A DNA stretch of 64,000 bases from Pseudomonadaceae bacterium (GCA_024236095.1 JACKLD010000012.1:214291-278290), one strand, 5' to 3'. Shown: positions 26,141 to 32,002, counted from the stretch's first letter. A program made the numbers and translations. Notes: generated by a model not told the origin, from the sequence alone.

Positions 26141-26319
26141 TCCCGTTCATCAACTTTGGAAACTCATTCAAAAACTGGCGGAACGGGAGGGATTGCCGTC
26201 GCTCCGCTCGGCGGCCTGCGGCTCGAGCCCATGCCCGTAGGTCGTATCGAGAGTTCTCACCCTCCCGTTCATCAACTTTGGAAACTCATTCAAAAACTGG
26301 CGGACGGGAGGGATTCGAA
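26141..26319. repeat. Two tandem copies of a 58-bp hairpin unit, each ending in a copy of the tRNA-Ser 3' end (att-site direct repeats)
   Basis: CCCTCCCGTTCATCAACTTTGGAAACTCATTCAAAAACTGGCGGA(A)CGGGAGGGATT appears at 26141-26198 and 26259-26319. TGGCGGAACGGGAGGGATTCGAA equals the 3' end of tRNA-Ser at 31909-31931. Confidence 0.65.
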
Positions 26320-26483
26320 TTGAAGAAATAATGCTTTAATTTGATTCAGTTAAAAAATTTTCTAAAAATCCCAAGGCCCCTATTTAAGCCCCCATAACAA
26401 TCCGCTTTTTACTTTCAAACACTTGATTCATAAGTACTAATCCTTACTATTCATCAATACTGTAGGTTATAAATCATCTCTCG

Positions 26484-26942
26484 TCAACTTGACGTGCATG
26501 CAGATACAGCTCTGCTGTATACCCTAACCGATTCAATTGTATTATTTTCAACAAAATCCCAGAAATCTTCGCTAAACTTTAATCTAGGGTTGAAGGCGAT
26601 TGAAAAACCACTTGAAGCTAACTTTTTCAAATTTAAAGCTTCTGCAAACCACTCTAGTACATTGAGAGGGTTTGAATGCACGCTGGGCTTCTGTGCCACA
26701 AATACTAAATGTCCACCATCACGGTAAAACTCATCAGATAAAACAATAAAACACTCCAAAAACGGCCAATCATCAAAAGTTGAAGGAATACCACCGGGAG
26801 TAGTGATTAAATCTTTCTTCCGGTGACACGCAATTCTTGAAAAAGCATATTTTTCATCATCAAGTAGCCCATTATTAATATAGGCAAATTTTGTATTCTT
26901 AGAATTTGTAAATTCAAAACTTTCGGAAAAAAATATTCTTAA
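26484..26942 (-). pseudogene. Decayed gene remnant (no ATG; frame open to 26942) in a very AT-rich stretch
   Basis: The ORF-track M at 26757-26759 is a TTG. The frame continues upstream with ...KYAFSRIACHRKKDLITTPGGIPSTFDDWPFLECF... and no ATG. Confidence 0.3.
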
Positions 26943-27259
26943 TTATCTCACTTCTAGATGTTTTTTGTTCTAACGGTAACGATGCTTGAGCATCCTCAAT
27001 AAGTGAAAACGCATAAACACCAAAACGGATTTTTCCCTCACTCATTCGAGTTACCTCTCCATTGATTTCTTAGAAACTTCATCCACCACTTTCACATCTG
27101 AAAACCAGAAGTTTTAACTCTCCTCGCACAACAAGTTATTAAGTTAATTCAACGGGTAGATTATATAATAAAATTCAAATCGTAAGTCAAACTTTACAAT
27201 ACTACAGTGCCGCTGTAATCTTCTTGTGTTAAGGCTTATTTTGTTGTATACGAAACGGC

Positions 27260-28291
27260 ATGATAAATAATGTAAAGTCTGCCGTTTGTGACCCAAAGCC
27301 AATAATTACCTTGGGTGTTCCGGCGCGTAATGAGGCTCAAAATCTCCCACGGTTGGTATCCTCCCTTCTACATAATCAACAAATTGTTCAGGATCGATAT
27401 CATTTACAAACACTTATTTGCATAAATGGCTCAACTGACAAGAGCGAAGAAGTCGCCTGTAGTTTGGGGGGTGACCCACGTTATCAGGATTTAAACATTA
27501 GTGTGTTATCATCTGATGCCGGGAAAATGGCTGCACAACAAGAAATCTGCCGCCAACGGCAGGGTGAGTGGGTTGTTTTCGCCGACGCTGATACTGAATT
27601 GGATCAAAACTGCCTAAATGGCTTGTTGATCGATGCGGAGCAACATCCGGAGGCACAGGTAGTATATGCTGATACTATTCCACAATGGTCTGGAAAATTA
27701 AGTTTGTTTGACTGGATGCTCAGCGTTCACTATCAGCAACCTGATGTTTTAACGCATCGTCACTACTTCCAAGGGCGTAGCTTTTTGATTAAATGCCCCG
27801 ATGTTTTTCTCTCCACGATGCGGAAAGGTGAGGGTTTGGAAAAGGCCTATCCTCGATTTTTAAACCTTCAAGCAGGGCCACAAATTGACGATGTGTACTT
27901 GTCACGTTTGATTTTCGACAAGTACGGCGCTGGATCAATGTTAAAATCCCCTTCGGCAAGGTTGAACTATGTTCCGCCCCGCAGCATGGCAGATTACTAC
28001 CGAGGCATGAAACGCCTGCTTATTGAGATTCATCGGCTGGATATTTTGTATCCTGAACATGCTCACTTACAGCGAGATTATTTCCAGCGCCGGACAATTC
28101 TTAAACGTTGGGCTGGATTGACGGCCTCAACCCAGTTGCGTCATATGGGTTACAAGAGCTTTGACCATGTGGTGAGGGGTATTGTTAAAATGCAGATTGC
28201 AAAAGGGTATTTGTTCCCAAATTCAGAAACAGAGCTTTGGCCGGAGACGAGGACAACCAAGTCCTTTGAGCAGGAGGATAAGGAAGTATAA
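27260..28291 (+). CDS. Glycosyltransferase family 2 (GT-A fold)
   Basis: ITLGVPARNEAQNLPRLVSSL N-terminus and a DAD (DxD) motif in VVFADADTELD. Soluble, low GC. Confidence 0.7.
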   Translation: MINNVKSAVCDPKPIITLGVPARNEAQNLPRLVSSLLHNQQIVQDRYHLQTLICINGSTDKSEEVACSLGGDPRYQDLNISVLSSDAGKMAAQQEICRQRQGEWVVFADADTELDQNCLNGLLIDAEQHPEAQVVYADTIPQWSGKLSLFDWMLSVHYQQPDVLTHRHYFQGRSFLIKCPDVFLSTMRKGEGLEKAYPRFLNLQAGPQIDDVYLSRLIFDKYGAGSMLKSPSARLNYVPPRSMADYYRGMKRLLIEIHRLDILYPEHAHLQRDYFQRRTILKRWAGLTASTQLRHMGYKSFDHVVRGIVKMQIAKGYLFPNSETELWPETRTTKSFEQEDKEV

Positions 28292-28893
28292 TGAACGATT
28301 ATTCAAAGCTTAATTTGGGGTGTGGACAGAGGCCGAATAACAAGTTCCCTCGGCCATGGTTGAATGTCGACCGAGAGGGGGCGGTGGCTGATATAACATG
28401 GGATATTGCTGACCTGCCGCAAGCATGGAACGCCACTTTTGATGAGGTTCGTGTTTCCCACGTTTTAGAGCATTTCTTTTTGGCTGAGGTACCGAATGTT
28501 CTTGCTGGGTGGTTACGGGTTTTGAAACCGAATGGAGTGTTGAGGGTTATTGTACCAGACTTGGATATTATTCTAAAAAATCTTCAGGATGGGATTGATG
28601 CAAAAGGGCGTACAGCCCTGTCTACCACCGAAACCACTCCTGTACTCGCCCAAATATACGGGATTGGTTATGATCAGGCTTCTACGGGGACACACTGGCG
28701 GCACCGGATGATTTACAATGAGGCCATGTTACGTTCTATCCTTCTACAAACGGGTCAGCTCACCAATATCACGAGATATTCTAAGGTTGATGATCCTGCC
28801 TATGGTTTTGGAATAGTGGATGATTCTCAAAATATCTTTTCACTTGGCATGAAAGCCGATAAAGTAACAACGCATGAAATGATGGGGGTTTAG
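28291..28893 (+). CDS. Class I SAM-dependent methyltransferase
   Basis: LNLGCGQRP motif I and VSHVLEHF, with a Methyltransf_11/23-like layout. The ATG overlaps the upstream stop (TAATGA). Confidence 0.7.
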   Translation: MNDYSKLNLGCGQRPNNKFPRPWLNVDREGAVADITWDIADLPQAWNATFDEVRVSHVLEHFFLAEVPNVLAGWLRVLKPNGVLRVIVPDLDIILKNLQDGIDAKGRTALSTTETTPVLAQIYGIGYDQASTGTHWRHRMIYNEAMLRSILLQTGQLTNITRYSKVDDPAYGFGIVDDSQNIFSLGMKADKVTTHEMMGV

Positions 28894-30645: not shown

Positions 30646-30646
30646 C

Positions 30647-31015
30647 CTACTTGCCTCCCTTTTTGGCTTCGGCCTTCAACTGTTCGTCCAGAGGGGTGAA
30701 TAACAAGCCGCACTTCTTGGCGATGCTGGCTTGTTCGATAGCCTCATATTCTCCCTTCAACTGGCGATACTCTGCCGCCTCGGGGCCATCTCCGCCTTCC
30801 AGAAAGAACAACGCTGGCCAGAACAACACCAACCCCACGCCCATCTGCCATGAGTCCGAACTGGCTTCGCTTTTGAGTTGTTGGTAAAGCTTGCTTGTCC
30901 GGCGGGTGATCCGGGTTTGCTCCATGCCAAGCTGCTGGCAGTCGTACTGCTGATACATCAATGGCGACACATCCGCCGCGATCATCTTGTCGGGATTGCT
31001 CGCACAAGCGGCCAA
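30647..31015 (-). CDS. Hypothetical protein with one hydrophobic segment
   Basis: 122-aa ORF between the island cargo and the integrase fragment. No recognisable domain. Confidence 0.35.
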   Translation of the reverse strand: MAACASNPDKMIAADVSPLMYQQYDCQQLGMEQTRITRRTSKLYQQLKSEASSDSWQMGVGLVLFWPALFFLEGGDGPEAAEYRQLKGEYEAIEQASIAKKCGLLFTPLDEQLKAEAKKGGK

Positions 31016-31023
31016 AAGACCCG

Positions 31024-31743
31024 CTATGGCGATTGTGAGGGGTTGGGGGTATGGGCATACAGCCGAGCCTCATTCCGTTCCAGCTTCCGCAAGAAGTCAG
31101 GCAATGCGCTGGCATCAAACGCCGCATAATGCCCTTTTGAGTAAGGTTTCAGGGCATCCCGATTCATGAACGTGGCAACCGGGTTGTGCTGCACCAATCC
31201 TTCCACAATGGCATACCGGAACACCTGCCCGCACATTTGCTTGAGCCGCCGGGCCACCTCATGGGCTTTCCGCTCTTCCACTTTCCTAATAGCCCCGATG
31301 ATATCCTGAACCGTCACATCCTTAATGGGCATGGCCCCAAACGCCGGGAAGATATCCCGCTCCAGTCGCCGCAGGTTGTAGCTGCCATGATTTTCCGTCC
31401 AGCCAGACACATTCTTGGCGTGCCATGCTCGAGCCACCACCTCAAACGTGGTTTCGCTTTCCAGTTTGGCTCGCGCTTTGTCTTTTCGTTTCTCAAGGGC
31501 CGGATCAACCTCCTGCGCTTTCATCTTCCGGGCGGCCATGGCCTTCTCCCGGGCCTCGGCCAACGTCACCAGCGGGTAACTGCCAAGGGCAAGTTTCTTT
31601 TCTTTCCCAAGATAGTAGTACTTCAGCTTCCAATGTTTGCCCCCGGCAGGAGACACCAACAGATACAACCCGTCAAAATCGGCCAGTTTATAAGGCTTTT
31701 CCTTGGGTTTCGCGGCTTGAATGGCCTTGTCGGTGAGGGGCAT
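31024..31743 (-). pseudogene. int: Truncated P4-type phage integrase (N-terminal DUF4102/SAM-like region only, 239 of about 400 aa)
   Basis: MPLTDKAIQAAKPKEKPYKLADFDGLYLLVSPAGGKHWKLKYY... is the standard P4-integrase N-terminus. The ORF ends before the catalytic R..HxxR..Y domain. It lies adjacent to the tRNA-Ser 3' end. Confidence 0.7.
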
Positions 31744-31908
31744 TTGGGGGCCTCCTGTTTTTTGATGGGGGCCTAATGGGTAAATTTGGCCCCTAAAAGT
31801 TCTGGCTAGGGGCGTTTTTTACCGGATGAAGCCGAACACAAAAGCAGGATAAACCCAAGTAATTCCGCCTGTCTAGTGAATTTCTCCGAATGTCGCTGAA
31901 TCAAATAA

Positions 31909-32002
31909 TGGCGGAACGGGAGGGATTCGAACCCTCGATACAAAGTTTCCCTCGTATAACGGTTTAGCAAACCGCCGCCTTCAGCCACTCGGCCACCGTT
32001 CC
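31909..32002 (-). tRNA. tRNA-Ser (anticodon GCU)
   Basis: Reverse complement reads GGAACGGTGGCCGAGTGGCTGAAGGCGGCGGTTTGCTAAACCG...long variable arm...GGTTCGAATCCCTCCCGTTCCGCCA, with a 7-bp acceptor stem GGAACGG/CCGTTCC. Confidence 0.85.

Follow-up and report, generated by a model that had tools for sequence, protein, structure and literature searches.

The stretch of DNA analysed here (64,000 nucleotides, referred to as the window) contains a single tRNA gene, an intact tRNA-Ser(GCU) on the minus strand (31909–32002), which was identified with both ARAGORN and Rfam (59.4 bits against the tRNA model) and is about 90% identical over 103 nt to the corresponding tRNA of relative L086. Read on the plus strand, the 3′ end of this tRNA is TGGCGGAACGGGAGGGATTCGAA (31909–31931), and foreign DNA begins right after its CCA end. 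A direct repeat of these 23 nt, TGGCGGACGGGAGGGATTCGAA, is located at 26298–26319 and matches the tRNA end at 22 of 23 positions; the one missing A falls in a short A run and could be an assembly error. The repeat abuts low-GC DNA to the base, and the tRNA and the repeat bracket a segment of 5,589 bp (26320–31908). The initial annotation of this region had described an island of about 5.6 kb integrated at the 3′ end of tRNA-Ser(GCU), with a 22–23 bp copy of that end at its far side, and the direct repeat bears this out. The combination of tRNA and direct repeat is far beyond chance: the expectation for an exact copy of the 23-mer is 0.00, and a 19-mer of the tRNA end with up to three mismatches, expected 0.04 times, was found twice. 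We assign the last 23 nt of the tRNA (31909–31931), the integration target, as the attL core and 26298–26319 as attR, the putative displaced original tRNA 3′ end.

Between the tRNA and the first gene lies a stretch of island DNA (31744–31908, minus strand), probably an attP-derived arm, that is homologous to island DNA of relative L082. An 11-bp sequence within it, CTGAATCAAAT (31896–31906), is an inverted repeat of 26339–26349, a match that was equalled in 81 of 2000 shuffles. The gene that follows (31024–31743, minus strand) encodes 239 residues in which just two domains of a P4-type integrase are present, the N-terminal arm-binding domain (DUF4102; Pfam Arm-DNA-bind_3, PF13356, E = 4.5e-25) and the central, core-binding one (Phage_int_M, PF22022, E = 4.1e-32); the catalytic domain with the active-site tyrosine (PF00589) was not detected in this ORF by Pfam. 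Relatives of the integrase are 395–415 residues long and have all three domains. Among full-length relatives, P0003 (412 aa) is the closest; it is 66% identical to the window fragment and, in the comparison with the P4 family that had been proposed earlier, matches phage P4 Int with 38.9% identity over 97% of the length (E = 9e-83). When P0003 was used as a tblastn query, only its residues 1–232 aligned to the window, and the catalytic domain has left no trace anywhere in 26000–32100. The earlier description of this gene as a P4-type pseudogene reduced to its N-terminal 239 residues holds; judged from its sequence, the ORF is a piece of a family member and not itself a working integrase.

The integrase homology ends abruptly at what is probably the breakpoint of an internal deletion (31047–31048). 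Both tblastn with P0003 and blastn with L082 place the end of homology at 31047–31049, the latter as one continuous alignment of 69% identity that runs from window position 32003 to 31047. The next ORF starts in the middle of a signal peptide: the frame downstream of the breakpoint reads ...LTIAIAGLLAAC, which contains a lipobox, and has no start codon upstream. An independent contig assembled from short reads, L001, matches the window with 100% identity across 31047/31048. The 5′-truncated, lipoprotein-like ORF (30647–31015, minus strand, 112–122 aa) has a GC content of 55.8% and no family match, and is followed by a hydrophobic ORF of 39 residues (30526–30645, minus strand), for which the Logan contig also has a gene call and whose end abuts the stop codon of the last cargo gene. 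An AlpA-type regulator and a primase or replication gene, which are present in L082, L083 and L084, are absent from the island in the window.

The cargo is an operon of four plus-strand genes, the stop and start codons of which overlap or abut at 28291, 28893/28894 and 29972–29991. The first gene (27260–28291) encodes a family-2 glycosyltransferase of 343 residues with a DAD motif (PF00535, E = 6.4e-15), for which NCBIfam gives weak matches to small-molecule and EPS GT2 enzymes. It is followed by a SAM-dependent methyltransferase of 200 residues (28291–28893; Methyltransf_11, E = 1.5e-5; motif I, GCGQ), a putative divergent ATP-grasp enzyme of 365 residues (28894–29991; PPDK_N/rifampin-phosphotransferase-like) and a Nudix hydrolase of 185 residues with the catalytic motif REVGEE (29972–30529; Pfam NUDIX, E = 2.5e-11). 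In PADLOC the cargo fits no known defence-system model; the Nudix protein alone gave a hit, a marginal match to PDC-S07 (E = 0.0039). Towards attR, three-frame translations reveal a gene of about 187 residues (26484–27045, minus strand, GC 33–38%) without a family match in our searches, which is frameshifted in a T7/A7 run near 26930; as the frameshift lies in a homopolymer run and the source is a metagenome-assembled genome, it may be an assembly error. A terminator-like hairpin (26392–26373) lies beside this broken gene. The initial annotation had treated the operon as unrelated to flanking housekeeping genes; the operon itself stands, but the left-hand neighbours are two large genes without a known function, which form a conserved, lineage-specific pair, and not housekeeping genes.

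The 365-residue protein appears to be a divergent ATP-grasp enzyme that is nearest to rifampin phosphotransferase and is also related to PEP synthase. It falls under every curated family threshold, and the Pfam families PPDK_N and PEP-utilizers were not detected at threshold. Its C-terminal domain of about 120 residues contains an invariant histidine (His316), and a profile of this domain matched no sequence in the PDB and no phosphohistidine domain. Rifampin phosphotransferase and PEP synthase/PPDK combine an ATP-grasp nucleotide-binding domain with a swivelling phosphohistidine domain; in contrast, the protein in the window is far smaller, lacks a rifampin- or PEP-binding domain, and is paired with a Nudix protein, to which it is fused in some distant relatives. 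An exhaustive search among 1.84 billion representatives recovered 57 clusters of this family, its own cluster counted, and 4 of 40 members are Nudix fusions. The Nudix hydrolase of the window shares 43–49% identity with the Nudix domains that occur as fusions with homologues of the 365-residue protein in L090, L091 and L092, and is the predicted partner of the ATP-grasp enzyme encoded upstream of it. Homologues are located in sugar-modifying operons, one of them within a conjugative element.

The ATP-grasp/Nudix enzyme pair is a rare and uncharacterized one. Tentatively, the operon might make or modify a glycosylated small molecule or glycoconjugate, with the ATP-grasp enzyme and its Nudix partner jointly responsible for an ATP-dependent phosphoryl or ligation step; the failure of the 365-residue protein to reach family thresholds and the lack of a phosphohistidine match for its C-terminal domain leave this chemistry weakly grounded. 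Given a structural assignment, a partner of the Nudix type that is conserved, and its recurrence among mobile elements and sugar-modifying genes, this rare family becomes a tractable target for biochemistry.

The number of tRNA-end copies differs from the two that had been reported: both of these are present, but there is a third (26176–26194), which is exact over 19 nt. It forms part of a 122-bp unit that resembles the RtT repeats of enterobacteria (26176–26280, minus strand). Read on the minus strand, the unit consists of GAACGGGAGGG, which is the inverted complement of the tRNA end, a 65-nt spacer and the exact 19-nt tRNA 3′ end. The 5′ arm (26260–26270) is complementary to the tRNA end at all of its 11 nt, and the resulting stem is predicted by folding and by an inverted-repeat scan. 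One and the same 38-bp flank comes after the unit (26138–26175) and after attR (26260–26297), so that with the tRNA end 57 bp are duplicated (26138–26194 and 26260–26316). The Rfam RtT model (RF00391) matches the unit with 29.3 bits, compared with a gathering score of 45, and with E-values of 0.013 in a search of 6.4 kb and 0.13 in the whole window. No similarity to E. coli RtT was found at the blastn level, and relatives L082, L086 and L087 have no unit of this type.

The layout nevertheless follows that of E. coli closely. As in tyrT/tyrV RtT, an exact 19-nt copy of the adjacent tRNA 3′ end, starting with AATCC, closes the unit; as in the tyrV–rttR units, the inverted complement of the tRNA end opens it and the flank after the unit is the same as the flank after the tRNA; and the motifs TGAGAA, TCGA, CTCGAGC and CCGCAGGC occur in the same order as in E. 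coli. One tyrT repeat unit encodes rttR (PMC3318445). The unit in the window differs from RtT in its length (122 bp versus 178 bp), in its number (one versus three or four) and in being tied to tRNA-Ser in an alphaproteobacterium, whereas RtT is tied to tRNA-Tyr in enterobacteria. We regard the third copy as probably native and the unit as a candidate RtT-like repeat outside the enterobacteria, which, if confirmed, would bear on the origin of tRNA-end repeats.

If all of the tRNA-end copies were native repeat units of the RtT kind, and not attachment sites, the low-GC DNA would have arrived by another route. The Rfam match and the E. coli-like layout, with its 19-nt end, repeated flank and complementary 5′ arm, are in keeping with such an origin and explain the third copy well, but 26298–26319 reaches 4 nt deeper into the T-loop (TTCG) than the RtT-type copy, fits the tRNA and not the unit, and abuts foreign DNA. 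Since attR includes the TTCG that is missing from the third copy, it derives from the tRNA itself. Together with the P4-type integrase beside the tRNA at the opposite end, the arm DNA homologous to the intact L082 island, the score below the gathering threshold and the lack of a unit in the three relatives, this makes a purely native origin of the copies very improbable. Alternatively, the third copy and the 65-bp spacer could be the scar of an earlier, deleted element at the same tRNA. Tandem islands with repeated att cores often build up at tRNA hot spots, and different elements occupy this tRNA in relatives; sequential integration, however, copies only the core, whereas here the duplication takes in the 38-bp chromosomal flank, with 45 nt identical; the spacer can be aligned to the RtT model, and the 5′ arm is complementary to the tRNA end. 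A scar is accordingly improbable, if somewhat less so. Two further ideas are unlikely in our estimation: that the cargo is an undescribed mobile-element module built around a split pair of a Nudix protein and a minimal, rifampin-phosphotransferase-like ATP-grasp enzyme (a pair that is fused in some relatives and lies within a conjugative element of another genome), and not a routine sugar-modification operon, or, separately, that the 122-bp unit is a true alphaproteobacterial counterpart of RtT, with a stem that co-varies with its tRNA. If the former were true, the ATP-grasp/Nudix module might act on an antibiotic or toxin by inactivating it, or on nucleotides by modifying them in defence or counter-defence.

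The same tRNA was inspected in relatives, which are distant (47–59% protein identity) and include no genome of the same genus. In L086, a metagenomic contig, the site is empty: tRNA-Ser(GCU) is followed by 168 bp and then by the homologous large gene and a homologue (51% identical) of the 721-residue protein, in the same orientation as in the window. In L082 the same tRNA lies beside the same gene pair and carries a different island, with an intact integrase gene (66% identical) and then AlpA and DUF7146; homology between L082 and the window starts at the tRNA and stops at the breakpoint. In L087 the same tRNA is occupied by other cargo. The orientation of the tRNA relative to the gene pair in L082 and L087 differs from that in L086 and the window. 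No homologue of the four cargo genes was found in the locus of any of these relatives or elsewhere in the window, and the initial annotation's suspicion of a foreign insertion is upheld, in that none of the relatives carries these genes at this tRNA with native GC content. From the comparison, tRNA-Ser(GCU) emerges as a hot spot of recurrent insertion in this lineage of uncultured alphaproteobacteria.

In base composition, the island is a mosaic of three layers: the tail next to attR (26320–27259) has a GC content of 34.5%, the operon (27260–30529) one of 45.6% and the integrase end (30531–31908) one of 54.9%, which is near the host composition. The window outside the island has a GC content of 59.7% and a GC3 of about 0.79, compared with a GC3 of 0.38–0.45 in the operon. 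The low-GC block as a whole (26320–30530) is at 0.431, about 8 sd under the rest of the window (4.2-kb windows outside the island: mean 0.596, sd 0.020, minimum 0.548). A drop to about 35–45% in a genome above 60% had been noted before; the profile confirms the foreign composition over 26320–30530, but not its uniformity, as the integrase end departs from it.

As the three GC layers show, the island did not come in as a single uniform piece, and the low-GC operon may have joined separately. It is conceivable, though doubtful, that there were two acquisitions, in which an older integrase element of near-host GC content (30531–31908) was the first to occupy the tRNA and the low-GC DNA (26320–30530) followed by another route, either recombination within the element in an earlier host or an insertion beside attR. 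The layers are sharp also in GC3 (0.25–0.45 versus 0.66–0.72), the step from 46% to 55–60% falls exactly where the ends of the Nudix gene and the 39-residue ORF abut (∼30530), and the neighbours of the intact integrase relatives in L082, L083 and L084 are quite different genes, among them AlpA, DUF7146 and AAA_25. On the other hand, the low-GC block reaches attR, neither a second recombinase gene nor further repeats were found flanking it, mosaic islands that are assembled in earlier hosts and then moved whole by one integrase are common, and nothing in the locus tells the order of events.

We conclude, with a probability of roughly 85%, that the segment is what decay has left of an integrative element with a tyrosine integrase of the P4 type. 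The attP of this element would have recombined with the last 23 nt of tRNA-Ser(GCU), from the T-loop to CCA, rebuilding the tRNA 3′ end from element DNA (attL) and pushing the original 3′ end 5.6 kb away to attR, which remained on its native downstream flank and sits just upstream of the conserved pair of large host genes. A later deletion at 31047/31048 would have taken the catalytic domain of the integrase and the start of the lipoprotein-like gene, and presumably AlpA and a primase-type module as well, leaving the 55%-GC integrase end, the 46%-GC four-gene operon and the 35%-GC tail with its broken gene. With the catalytic domain deleted, the island would be unable to excise by itself. The truncation on which the initial annotation based its view of a probably immobilized island is evident, while immobility as such is what we infer from it, and a related integrase might act in trans.

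As an island, the segment offers little that is new, being a textbook example of an element with a P4-type integrase that was captured at a tRNA and became stranded there. It differs from phage P4, which integrates at tRNA-Leu, and from the CP4-like islands of enterobacteria in that its integrase is without a catalytic domain, the AlpA and primase-type genes are missing and no defence system is recognized by PADLOC, and in its host, an uncultured alphaproteobacterium, and its target, tRNA-Ser(GCU). In other respects the correspondence is close: the integrase gene adjoins the tRNA 3′ end and runs in the same direction, its family is tied to P4 Int through the full-length relative, about 20–23 nt of the tRNA 3′ end recur as a direct repeat at the far boundary, the cargo has a foreign base composition and the same tRNA is differently occupied in relatives.

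The 5,589 bp at 26320–31908 are best explained as a P4-type element that integrated at tRNA-Ser(GCU) and was later stranded by an internal deletion, a reading to which we assign a probability of about 0.85. The tRNA-Ser(GCU) gene, the only tRNA gene in the window, occupies 31909–32002 on the minus strand, and the plus-strand reading of its 3′ end is TGGCGGAACGGGAGGGATTCGAA. The initial annotation had reported a direct repeat of this end, and such a repeat is present on the far side of the island: TGGCGGACGGGAGGGATTCGAA at 26298–26319 reproduces 22 of the 23 bases with one A absent, and its chance expectation is close to zero (by shuffling, 0.00 for a 23-mer and 0.04 for a 19-mer with up to three mismatches). 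The missing A falls in a homopolymer run (about 26298–26305) and could be an error in the assembly of the metagenome-assembled genome (MAG). An 11-bp inverted repeat, ATTTGATTCAG/CTGAATCAAAT, is located just within both island ends (26339–26349 and 31896–31906), with marginal significance (81 of 2000 shuffles), and an additional TTGATTCA lies at 26423–26430; these may be binding sites for the integrase or an accessory protein.

The composition of the island is clearly foreign and is arranged in layers. The GC content is 34.5% in 26320–27259, 45.6% in the cargo operon (27260–30529; GC3 of 0.38–0.45) and 54.9% in 30531–31908 (GC3 of 0.66–0.72), compared with 59.7% for the window outside the island, where rplM, rpsI, hemF and pgk have a GC3 of about 0.79. 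Outside the island, 4.2-kb segments have a mean GC fraction of 0.596 (s.d. 0.020, minimum 0.548), and the previously noted drop in GC is therefore confirmed, in three layers. The main alternative, separate acquisition of the low-GC block and the integrase module, is a possible but doubtful history that concerns how the island arose and not what it is, and that is compatible with integration of a P4-type element. The most AT-rich layer carries a gene of ∼187 residues (26484–27045, minus strand) without a family match, which is frameshifted in a run of seven T/A; this frameshift (∼26925–26940, T7/A7) could be an assembly error in the MAG and not real decay. A scan for promoters and terminators gave counts that did not differ from those in shuffled sequences.

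The integrase fragment (31024–31743, minus strand) is separated from the tRNA by a 165-bp arm. The 239-residue ORF contains the Arm-DNA-bind_3 and Phage_int_M domains and lacks PF00589, while its ∼7,000 relatives in the protein search are typically 395–415 residues long with all three domains. Its closest relative, P0003 (412 residues, 66% identical), aligns to the window by tblastn over residues 1–232 only, with no trace of the catalytic domain in 26000–32100. P0003 matches phage P4 Int over 97% of its length (38.9% identity; E value of 9e-83), which justifies the `P4-type' label; the earlier description of a P4-type integrase truncated to its N-terminal part is thus upheld, with homology ending at residue 232. 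The breakpoint lies at 31047/31048. To its left, the next ORF, lipoprotein-like and 5′-truncated (30647–31015, minus strand), opens midway through a signal peptide (...LTIAIAGLLAAC), lacks an upstream start codon and is followed by a hydrophobic ORF of 39 residues (30526–30645, minus strand). A single deletion therefore probably removed the catalytic half of the integrase, the start of the neighboring gene and whatever lay between. The short-read Logan contig L001 (run SRR12358675) is 100% identical to the window across 31744–29434, so that the breakpoint cannot be put down to an error of this assembly; L001 was not retained as an independent strain because, at 100% identity, it may share a sample with the MAG. 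Another integrase of the family, P0039, is annotated at 240 residues only, with the N-terminal domains alone, on a 739-kb contig, and breaks at this domain boundary may thus have happened more than once.

In the proposed sequence of events, a P4-type integrative element would have entered by recombination in the stretch of tRNA-Ser(GCU) from the T-loop to CCA, and a later internal deletion would have taken the catalytic domain together with the element's own maintenance genes. The remnant would be a non-autonomous island with an intact operon that may still be expressed.

The cargo operon consists of four abutting or overlapping genes on the plus strand, opposite to the integrase fragment: a GT2 glycosyltransferase (27260–28291, DAD motif), a SAM methyltransferase (28291–28893, GCGQ motif), a 365-residue protein without a family match (28894–29991) and a Nudix hydrolase (29972–30529, REVGEE). 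The glycosyltransferase, methyltransferase and Nudix proteins look intact. A Nudix domain is fused to the protein in four of 40 relatives of the 365-residue protein, and the Nudix hydrolase of the island is 43–49% identical to these fused domains, so that the two adjacent genes represent a single functional unit in split form. The fused protein occurs in two operon contexts, L090 (with a short duplicate, L091) and L092, beside a GT1 glycosyltransferase, a polysaccharide deacetylase, a radical-SAM enzyme (with a B12-binding domain in L092) and a FemAB-type acyltransferase; the L090 operon is flanked by TraG/TrwB conjugation genes. Another homologue locus, L093, has DegT, GT4, an epimerase, a radical-SAM enzyme, transketolase halves and a Nudix protein as neighbors. 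The recurring theme of these contexts is sugar-modifying chemistry on mobile DNA. PADLOC recognized no known defence system among the cargo, and PADLOC, PHROGs and NCBIfam searches with the cargo, the frameshifted gene and the small ORFs were uninformative apart from generic GT2, methyltransferase and Nudix assignments. The 365-residue protein had no tblastn match in phages and plasmids, and a profile of its C-terminal domain had no meaningful match among PDB sequences. Single-sequence AF2 prediction of this protein was useless (pLDDT of 31.8), whereas an alignment-based model was good. The best viral fold match of this model is Gp139 of Bacillus phage G, also of 365 residues (TM-score of 0.48 over the whole length), which may share its two-domain architecture. 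A tentative view of the chemistry, one that we consider possible at best, couples a phosphoryl or ligation step requiring ATP to a Nudix pyrophosphohydrolase, on a substrate that would undergo glycosylation and methylation as well.

HemF and other proteins of the source genome are closest, among the matches listed, to Micavibrio-like and other Alphaproteobacteria, and on this basis the source is treated as a probable uncultured alphaproteobacterium. The 23S and 5S rRNA genes are located at 36647–39578 on the minus strand, and the 64-kb window contains neither 16S rRNA nor spacer tRNA genes, so that the rRNA genes of this genome appear to be unlinked. The relatives compared are distant, none close having been retrieved: the best HemF matches in genome contigs, among those listed, are 46–57% identical, and a tRNA-Ser lies near hemF in one of 26 loci checked, in a different arrangement. 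Exact look-ups of HemF and of the protein P0001 gave no entry. To the left of the island lies an adjacent gene pair (19322–26098, minus strand), encoding a 721-residue protein and a large protein (∼1480–1527 residues) with a signal peptide, transmembrane segments and acidic coiled-coil repeats; neither has a Pfam, PHROG or PADLOC match. The 721-residue protein has 152 homologues in the protein search, and the large gene has homologues in L082, L085, L086 and L087. Across ∼150 uncultured alphaproteobacterial sequences the pair is conserved and always adjacent with varying neighbors; in view of this and the lack of PHROG or Pfam matches, its assignment to a tandem prophage or ICE was dropped.

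The tRNA-Ser(GCU) gene stands beside this pair in three relatives. In L086 the tRNA (3658–3751) is followed by 168 bp and the large gene, with no insert and in the same orientation as in the window; this is an empty site, though a distant one (the 721-residue proteins are 51% identical). The motif cctttgtatcccttgaa upstream of the large gene is common to L086 and the window and marks the DNA left of ∼26050 as native. In L082 the tRNA region (7034–7265) is followed by the intact integrase P0003, AlpA and DUF7146, and its DNA can be aligned to the window from the tRNA up to exactly 31047. In the marine locus L087 (TARA; tRNA region 4775–4866), 2705–4866 holds a Shedu (SduA) gene at the 3′ side of the tRNA and a weak sRNA-Xcc1-like match, with no integrase in the sequence examined. 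The cargo proteins are encoded neither in the relatives' loci examined nor elsewhere in the window. The same genes with native GC content were thus not found at this tRNA in relatives, where L086 is empty and L082 and L087 have other content, which favors an island. Relative to the gene pair, the tRNA is directed outwards in L082 and L087 and inwards in L086 and the window, which implies that the locus also underwent inversion as the lineage evolved. In L082, a 33-nt copy of the tRNA 5′ end precedes the tRNA by ∼100 bp; this copy and the differences in orientation suggest inversions and rearrangements at a hot spot. The predicted empty-site junction is the tRNA followed by GTTTTTGAATGAG. Neither an exact-match search for the junction sequence TTCGAATCCCTCCCGTTCCGCCAGTTTTTGA nor an alignment of the 721-residue protein run against metagenomes found a match.

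A third copy of the tRNA end, exact over 19 nt, is located at 26176–26194. It could be the scar of a tandem island, but sequential integration duplicates the core only, and here the 57 bp at 26138–26194, comprising a 38-bp chromosomal flank and the tRNA end, are duplicated at 26260–26316; this history explains the copy poorly and is improbable. A 122-bp unit lies within 26138–26319, downstream of the original 3′ end of the tRNA. On the minus strand, 26176–26280 gives a sub-threshold match to RtT RNA (RF00391) in an Rfam scan (29.3 bits, the gathering score being 45; E values of 0.013 in a 6.4-kb search and 0.13 over the whole window). The repeat region has no blastn match in E. coli genomes, and no such unit is present in L082, L086 or L087.

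In E. coli, rttR is encoded by one of the tyrT repeat units (PMC3318445). The tyrV–rttR units are 178 bp each and end in the last 19 nt of tRNA-Tyr, from AATCC; each starts, behind a flank that also follows the tRNA, with the inverted complement of the tRNA end, GGGGAAGGA/TCCTTCCCC. Both repeats could be RtT-type units and not att sites at all, which is very unlikely for the copy at 26298–26319: it takes in a further 4 nt of the T-loop (TTCG) compared with the RtT-type copy and abuts foreign DNA, and it is for these reasons the true attR. The likeness to RtT is suggestive of the third copy belonging to a native RtT-like unit that would already have followed the tRNA when the island inserted. 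The window unit follows the same plan as those of E. coli, with several internal motifs in common and in the same order; its arm is fitted to tRNA-Ser (GAACGGGAGGG/CCCTCCCGTTC, 11 perfect pairs), whereas that of E. coli fits tRNA-Tyr. The island itself is of a very well known kind, and only the cargo enzyme pair and the RtT-like unit are unusual.
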